Shown here: piece after piece, positions 42,904-43,302 of the stretch | How positions within the stretch are numbered: position 1 is the first letter of the stretch | Layout: each line of letters opens with the position of its first letter | NCBI GenBank assembly: GCA_048498835.1 | Contig: JBEHXF010000009.1 | Coordinates: 1 to 49,734 of the forward strand | Direction: 5' to 3' | Length of the DNA: 49,734 nucleotides | Source: Chlamydiota bacterium | Lineage (GTDB): Bacteria > Chlamydiota > Chlamydiia > Chlamydiales > SM23-39 | Made by a program: the position numbers and the translations under genes | The notes under the pieces: generated by a model | The model's input: the letters and a program-made list of their open reading frames with translations, nothing else | Database searches by the model: none | Told to the model about the DNA's origin: nothing

Positions 42904-43302
42904 TTATGAAGTGAATTTTATTCCATTCCACTTTTCTGGCGGAGGAATAATTACAAAATCGAAAAGAGGAGGGATATTTTCATCTAATACGACTCCAGGG
43001 AGAGGATCAATGCAAAATTTCTTATTGTTTTTGATTATCTGTCGATACTTATAATAGCAAGAATTACACTGATAAACTTTATCCTTCCATTTATCAATTT
43101 TATACCATTTTCTGGCCTTGGTTATTCCGCAGAAGAAGCACTGTTTTCCTTCTCTGTTGTGTTTTTCAGCAAGCGTTTTTTCATAACAGTCCTTACAAAC
43201 ACTATCCAATTTAGTTACGGCATTCTTAATGAACTTTGCTACTTTATTTTCTTTACACTCTGGACACCACCTTAAATCAGAAGAAGCGCCTGTAACGTTC
43301 AT
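42904..43302 (-). CDS. Cys-rich protein with two C4 zinc fingers (second is GATA-like)
   Basis: C13-X2-C-X19-C-X2-C39 and C55-X2-C-X20-C-X2-C82 with W66 and CNSC; AT-rich; lies between hemC and hemD. Confidence 0.75.
   Translation of the reverse strand: MNVTGASSDLRWCPECKENKVAKFIKNAVTKLDSVCKDCYEKTLAEKHNREGKQCFFCGITKARKWYKIDKWKDKVYQCNSCYYKYRQIIKNNKKFCIDPLPGVVLDENIPPLFDFVIIPPPEKWNGIKFTS

Follow-up and report, generated by a model that had tools for sequence, protein, structure and literature searches.

Why would a small gene for two C4 zinc fingers, reminiscent of the GATA factors of eukaryotes, be situated between the haem-synthesis genes hemC and hemD of a chlamydial genome, and what could its product do? 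The window, the entire stretch of 49,734 nucleotides that was analysed, derives from a 1.97-Mb assembly that is 97% complete (G000, hereafter the source genome).

The open reading frame between hemC and hemD

The frame spans 42904..43302 on the minus strand, and encodes a protein of 132 residues, 15.5 kDa and pI 9.2. It is preceded by hemC (43343..44074, minus strand; PF01379, E 1e-56), the stop of which lies 40 nt upstream, and followed by hemD (42287..42901, minus strand; PF02602, E 2e-26), with 2 nt separating its own stop (42906-42904) from the hemD ATG at 42901. The original prediction of an AT-rich frame of 132 residues with two C4 motifs, ending 2 nt before hemD, was hence confirmed on the sequence. 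A Shine-Dalgarno-like GAGAGGG (GAGG; 43303..43312, minus strand) ends in an in-frame TGA immediately 5' of the ATG. Neither a promoter-like site on the coding strand nor a terminator-like site was found around the gene, and from the spacing only we infer co-transcription with hemC and hemD.

The protein starts with a leader of 12 residues (43267..43302, this and the following segments on the minus strand), a candidate type III secretion signal. Finger 1 (residues 13-39, 43186..43266) has the form C-X2-C-X19-C-X2-C, with cysteines 13, 16, 36 and 39, and is the more degenerate of the two, carrying Phe in place of the conserved Trp. An inter-finger helix and linker (residues 40-54, 43141..43185) leads to finger 2 (residues 55-82, 43057..43140), C-X2-C-X20-C-X2-C with cysteines 55, 58, 79 and 82 and a predicted treble-clef/GATA fold. 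Both spacings fall within the C-X2-C-X17-20-C-X2-C of GATA fingers, and Trp66 of finger 2 is found eight residues past the second cysteine, Cys58, as in GATA fingers. The basic end of the finger-2 helix (residues 85-95, 43018..43050) is followed by a proline-rich and hydrophobic C-terminal tail (42907..43017). With 23 Lys/Arg and 10 Asp/Glu, the finger region is strongly basic.

Among 1662 crude gene calls of the source genome (median GC 0.466), the gene, with a GC content of 0.343, ranks at the 1.1th percentile; its GC3 ranks at the 5th, and its codon adaptation, at the 28th, is ordinary. While 23 six-frame ORFs of the source genome contain any CxxC-x16-21-CxxC, the additional presence of the Trp leaves the target and one paralogue only. 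The latter (G000:C14:18191-19051, minus strand; L002/L042) has five fingers and scores 41.5 bits with Pfam GATA. It begins a few bases past the pgsA stop, is convergent with glgA, and is better preserved than the target.

Next, the junction was surveyed in 40 relatives, 27 of which gave a hemD match, and the 26 best-match loci were examined. Present at 21 of these, hemC lies within 100 nt of hemD or is fused to it in 18, with the remaining gaps being 111, 222 and 946 nt. Using tblastn with the finger protein, no match was recovered at any of the examined loci of relatives, and family matches were absent from all five same-genus genomes. In the synteny comparison suggested in the original prediction, the gene was found at the source genome's own junction only. 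Since hemC and hemD abut or are fused in most relatives and the finger protein was recovered at none of the loci examined, the target is a recent, lineage-specific insertion, at a junction that tolerates insertions. The 946-nt gap, in a genome of the same genus (G004), holds an unrelated orphan ORF of 314 residues on the opposite strand (L009:2104-3048), without a match in NCBIfam, and the junction therefore looks like a landing site. At the target locus itself we detected no target-site duplication and no IS ends, with short repeats at chance level only. Separately, three of the 21 relatives (L006 of G002, L011 of G001 and L026 of G038) display an in-frame HemC-HemD read-through fusion.

Family membership and fold

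The GATA character that had been proposed for the protein was assessed directly and through its relatives. Pfam GATA (PF00320; cut-off 26.8 bits), the check proposed originally, yields no match to the target at E<=1, and the best sequence match in the PDB is a GATA-type factor (2kae) at E 0.043. A word-based search of 5.8 billion proteins, insensitive for short repeats, returned the target itself only, and nothing for the C14 paralogue; a two-finger profile recovered four matches to longer proteins in the same collection, one from G011 and three GATA-domain proteins. Neither these 5.8 billion proteins nor the five same-genus genomes contained an orthologue of the target. The single-sequence AlphaFold model reached a pLDDT of 34 and was discarded. 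A family-alignment model (pLDDT 78.7), the alignment of which included GATA-like relatives, has a topology of hairpins and a C-terminal helix. With Foldseek, the double fingers of GATA3 and GATA1 ranked 1-5 against this model, with E>=0.069, i.e. not significant, and in VIA-align the ClpX zinc domain (Z 4.3) was close to GATA1 (4.1), with the ZAD, RING and ZZ folds also tied. Considering these E values and this tie, the fold is probably a treble clef, for which GATA is favored by rank only.

At the canonical DNA-reading sites, finger 2 has Lys and Tyr flanking the Trp rather than Leu and Arg. It keeps the Asn after the third cysteine, and has Tyr-Tyr instead of Gly-Leu after the fourth, as judged from alignments with GATA-3 and AreA. 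With both neighbours of the Trp changed in this way, Leu to Lys and Arg to Tyr, the target would be unlikely to read the canonical WGATAR site.

Chlamydial GATA genes are of two kinds. Two other chlamydial families have fingers of the canonical CNACG type, either singly or in pairs, whereas tandem repeat fingers, spaced by about 38-43 residues, present in 1-7 copies and ending in CxxCY, are found in G000, G010, G011 (at least nine genes), G354 and G412. Five further loci were obtained when metagenome contigs were scanned for the motif. L118 is a three-finger gene adjoining a ClpB that is 66% identical to that of the source genome, and L119-L121 are tandem arrays with at least 13 near-identical genes, in each of which an 11-residue leader is followed by 1-7 fingers, the RKRK motif and a tail that is conserved. 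Of 250 Chlamydiales genomes, 51 have homologues of an array-flanking gene (best 45%), which fits, and does not prove, a chlamydial origin of the array contigs. Pfam GATA scores are 46.6 and 55.2 for array genes, 37.5 for L118 and 27.8 for G010; the G011 C2a, G412 and G354 members do not reach the cut-off.

A two-finger profile made from the L119 and L121 arrays only recovers the target at E 7.7e-13 (residues 11-86) among 36,488 six-frame ORFs of the source genome, with the next unrelated match at E 0.1, and a profile of the G010 and G011 fingers alone finds it at E 1.5e-8. The best blastp pair between target and family shows 43% identity over 58 residues, linker included, and the linker is nearly identical to that of the array genes. 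The leaders, 12 and 11 residues, are also of about the same length. When residues were shuffled with the cysteines fixed and scored with a profile of repeat-type fingers from other genomes, the score of finger 2 was reached by 0 of 2000 shuffles and that of finger 1 by 38 of 2000; against canonical fingers, 473 of 2000 shuffles reach the finger-1 score. The family profile, target included, in turn retrieves GATA-3 first (E 2.8e-12) and then GATA-1, GATA-4 and GATA-2, with E values up to 2.6e-7. In a tree of 65 fingers, repeat-type and canonical CNACG fingers are split with a support of 97/95, and the target falls within the repeat type, both of its fingers being on long branches (3.05 and 1.7). 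With 40 columns only and an unsettled bootstrap, the tree cannot name a donor.

Judged by sequence, the target belongs to the chlamydial repeat-finger family as a diverged member with two fingers, and this family is of GATA type. The GATA-like finger consequently holds through family homology and not through the Pfam, PDB and fold comparisons of the target itself, in which GATA ranked first among the structures without significance. The assignment had been restricted to the second finger and stands for that finger; the restriction falls, as the array profile covers residues 11-86 and finger 1 is also of the family. As for origin, the nearest relatives are chlamydial repeat-finger proteins that group apart from canonical CNACG fingers, and a one-off gene derived from a host, as had been envisaged, was not shown, the target belonging with the repeat-finger family in the 65-finger tree.

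The distribution of the domain was also charted. PF00320 exceeds its cut-off in 8 of 300 genomes sampled at the order level and 10 of 400 at the phylum level (source genome included, one genome unscored), and in none of 14 control genomes. A canonical-pattern scan of 185,579 prokaryotic species, biased to chlamydial fingers since the pattern was derived from them, gave seven loci: five chlamydial, one gammaproteobacterial and one spurious. The gammaproteobacterial gene (L111:1796-2617, from a MAG) lies between gltX and mnmA-hflD, encodes a Pro/Ser-rich protein that bears a canonical GATA finger, and is possibly an independent acquisition. Small canonical GATA-finger genes are also present on three IMG/VR contigs (L113, L114 and L115), two of them labelled giant-virus MAGs. 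The canonical genes of other chlamydial families are often in tandem and have S/T/N/P-rich N-termini; they comprise L037/L044/L046 (G312), L048/L056 (G405), L049/L054/L058 (G371), L050/L053/L060/L065 (G445) and L039/L045 (G242), as well as L040, L041, L035 and L036.

Family genes are intron-free ORFs that adjoin rsgA, kdpD, ispE, pheT, menA, glgA, pgsA or pyk, and some of the genomes bearing them consist of 1-4 contigs. Contamination was ruled out for the target and most relatives, these being intron-free frames amid bacterial genes. Two candidates were set aside: L038 (G238), on a contig that by eye is eukaryotic and was excluded from the chlamydial evidence, and L112, a spurious off-frame match. 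The G361 match is marginal and sits at a contig edge. In G011, a transposase-like ORF (by eye) adjoins a repeat-finger gene (L069:1319-2050 and L070:1988-3076), a possible route of spread.

The tight coupling to hemD could suggest a protein that acts on the bacterial side, i.e. a regulator of chlamydial or phage DNA, possibly for haem, or a mobile-element protein, for instance derived from a phage treble clef. Phage clusters are among the feature neighbours in the ESM Atlas, all with scores below 0.9 and hence leads only. However, tblastn against 50,697 phage records gave no match, no PHROG family was matched by more than one of 20 members, and the repeat-type motif had no matches in IMG/VR, leaving a phage origin without support. 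Haem regulation was likewise rejected: the family members have no common neighbour gene, and as they adjoin unrelated genes in each genome there is no link to haem. With NLS-like motifs being enriched in the family as well (see below), we consider a bacterial-side or mobile-element role very improbable.

Variable positions in the fingers

To compare fingers, positions were counted from the first cysteine, which places the Trp at +11. Across 45 distinct array fingers (six with longer spacers were left out), the loop from the Trp to the third cysteine is almost invariant, and +9, +10, +12, +24, +25 and +28 vary the most. For the five positions +9, +10, +12, +24 and +28, piN/piS is 0.418/0.322 (1.3), versus 0.077/0.359 (0.21) for the other 25, and 39 distinct five-position combinations are represented in the 45 fingers. 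As the five positions were fixed after the array data had been seen, the array itself provides no independent test of them (p 1e-4). The excess was replicated in seven other finger sets when pooled (p 8e-4), of which 24 of 37 fingers fitted the pattern, with G010 and L118 having been viewed by eye beforehand; taken singly, two sets had p<0.05 and three were without excess. Variable residues on a conserved scaffold, the hallmark of TAL-like repeats, are thereby found at the family level, the positions having been chosen post hoc and replicated in the pooled sets. Position +25, outside these five, varies equally. For 17 of 21 canonical chlamydial fingers the five positions are instead conserved (0.41 vs 0.61, p 0.03).

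The same positions matter in known GATA factors. The structure of AreA L22V is on a TGATA site and that of the wild type on CGATA, with L22 being the residue before the Trp (+10). Positions +9 and +28 presumably read bases in GATA fingers as well. In GATA2, L359V, R361L and N371K, corresponding to +10, +12 and +24 when counted from C373, are functional or disease mutations; L359V binds DNA more tightly and R361L has less transactivation (PMC3401466).

Such an inverted conservation would be expected of a diversified recognition code, and is also compatible with relaxed selection on exposed residues. Along the latter line, the fingers might bind proteins or other ligands, as do the N-finger of GATA1 with FOG, ClpX, ZZ and LIM domains, the variable sites then simply being exposed surface. 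The tie of the ClpX zinc domain, GATA, ZAD, RING and ZZ folds in VIA-align agrees with such a role, a piN/piS near 1 fits neutrality, and the Arg, Asn and Gly-Leu of canonical GATA fingers have been lost in the repeat type. Nevertheless, the variation sits at the GATA DNA-reading sites, while the loop, although equally exposed, is conserved (piN 0.049). The variable sites are moreover occupied chiefly by N, K, R, Q, S, H and Y, acidic residues being scarce (3 of 68 at +24), and the finger region of the target is basic. We therefore regard ligand binding as unlikely. With most variation at the GATA DNA-reading positions, the family members are likely effectors in the host nucleus that would read many different DNA sequences.

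A proposed nuclear role and its relation to known systems

Chlamydiae are obligate intracellular bacteria that depend on type III secretion, and the source genome encodes SctV (TIGR01399, 900 bits with a cut-off of 692). Given this intracellular life and secretion, nuclear effectors are the most economical reading. Of 44 other family proteins, 28 have NLS-like motifs (12 of these 28 belong to one array), compared with 80 of 1353 proteins of the source genome; the 28 are spread over 10 of 16 genomes or contig sets. A C-terminal hydrophobic motif, by a pattern that was written after the family had been seen, is found in 19 of 46 family proteins (11 from arrays) against 21 of 1664 in the source genome, where a looser form occurs near the end of 1 of 1662 genes. 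We take this motif, also present in several canonical genes, to resemble the eh1/Groucho-binding corepressor motif. By a crude N-terminal S/T/N/P score, the target is at the 38th percentile, and 18 of 28 relatives are at or above the 88th.

In the target, the strict NLS-like motif and the strict C-terminal motif are both absent, as they are from several other members. Its tail aligns loosely to the tail motif of relatives, and residues 85-95 form a weaker basic stretch where array genes have the RKRK motif, so that the basic tail of the original prediction proved weak. A 15.5-kDa protein is, on the other hand, small enough to diffuse through nuclear pores without an NLS. The proposal of a candidate nucleomodulin accordingly stays plausible, considering the NLS-like motifs of many family members and the SctV gene.

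Elsewhere in the window, several orphan ORFs that match no Pfam family above its cut-off (1214-2071, 13992-16151, 22144-22809, 30268-32061, 36110-37066 and 48592-49475) lie between housekeeping genes, some with low GC (0.37-0.43), and are possible further effectors. The window also encodes a protein of 436 residues in which an AAT domain, C45 peptidase-like acyltransferase, is recognised (37338-38645, plus strand; GC 0.40) and a chloramphenicol phosphotransferase-like protein (32144-32752, plus strand; PF07931, 154 bits).

Aggregated, we lean towards the target being a diverged member of a family that is likely injected by type III secretion and likely binds DNA in the host nucleus, with fingers that would read short sequences. 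Following passage into the eukaryotic host, the proteins would enter the nucleus using their NLS-like motifs or, for the small target, by diffusion. Each finger would bind zinc and read a short DNA sequence set by a few variable residues, and the short eh1-like motif at the C-terminus may confer repression of host genes. The target itself is probably a passenger on the hemC-hemD transcript, without a role in haem synthesis, and may be a minimal active member or a decaying one. That the family is directed to the host while the target is a decaying or weakly active two-finger remnant, whose frame has stayed open only through its small size and recent arrival, is congruent with its long branches, the lost Trp of finger 1, the missing NLS-like and tail motifs, and a GC content in the lowest percentile of the source genome's genes. 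Its absence from the five same-genus genomes, with an unrelated ORF at the G004 junction, points the same way. Yet all eight cysteines, the 19-residue spacing of finger 1, the linker, the Shine-Dalgarno-like site and the open frame have been kept despite an identity of about 30-43% to the nearest relatives, and intact one- and two-finger genes exist inside arrays. We thus find a remnant rather unlikely.

A bolder view, which we put forward tentatively and hold to be possible at best, is that a captured GATA finger has developed into a modular effector system for programmable DNA reading, the zinc-finger equivalent of TAL effectors, which would rewire protist transcription. Tandem fingers, an NLS and a corepressor-recruiting tail would here have been expanded to arrays of a dozen or more genes, with the target as a small outlying member. 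The interest is in any case more in the family reached through the target than in the target copy itself. If true, this would represent a second, independent modular DNA-reading system and direct control of host genes by amoeba-type symbionts. A GATA residue-to-base code could be tested in vitro with the 45 natural finger variants, which share a constant scaffold. Even without a code, the intact canonical GATA genes of about 2.5% of the Chlamydiota genomes sampled, and of a single gammaproteobacterial MAG, indicate that a eukaryotic transcription-factor domain has been taken up more than once by intracellular-type bacteria.

How does the family compare with known systems? With eukaryotic GATA factors (PF00320; GATA-1/2/3/4, AreA, plant GATA18, 2kae), the C4 finger with its predicted treble clef, the Trp at +11 and the C-terminal helix are shared, and canonical chlamydial members also share the WR-x-GP...CNACG pattern. 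The chlamydial genes are in contrast bacterial and intron-free, the target is below the Pfam cut-off, and the repeat-type fingers, 1-7 per protein, end in CxxCY and are variable where GATA factors are conserved. Tandem C2H2 arrays, as in KRAB-ZFPs, combine a conserved scaffold and linker with variable base-reading positions and clustered genes. The constant scaffold and linker, variable reading sites and tandem clusters recur in the chlamydial family, which differs by its predicted C4 treble clef and bacterial origin.

Established nucleomodulins include NUE and SINC of chlamydiae, AnkA of Anaplasma and TRP120 of Ehrlichia. The proposed nuclear site, the NLS-like motifs and a domain of eukaryotic type would be common to these and the family. 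Chlamydia are unmentioned in the available portion of a review of gut-bacterial nucleomodulins (PMC12366366). In a full-text literature search that included few subscription papers, no publication turned up that treats GATA-domain proteins from chlamydiae or any other bacteria as effectors, nor one that describes a nucleomodulin built on a captured GATA DNA-binding domain. The GATA domain and a nucleomodulin or TAL-like mode of action are each known singly, and their combination appears undescribed.

To our knowledge, bacterial effectors that act as sequence-specific transcription factors are few. The classic example is that of the TAL effectors, whose code has become a tool for genome engineering. 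The chlamydial proteins have no sequence relation to them, are built from zinc-finger modules, and, in place of an activation domain, possess a tail that is possibly of repressor type; the likeness in mode of action is a proposed one. That likeness would consist of type III-delivered modular repeats in which variable residues specify host DNA, as given for Xanthomonas TAL effectors (PMC3937315), together with multi-gene repertoires in which the repeat number varies.
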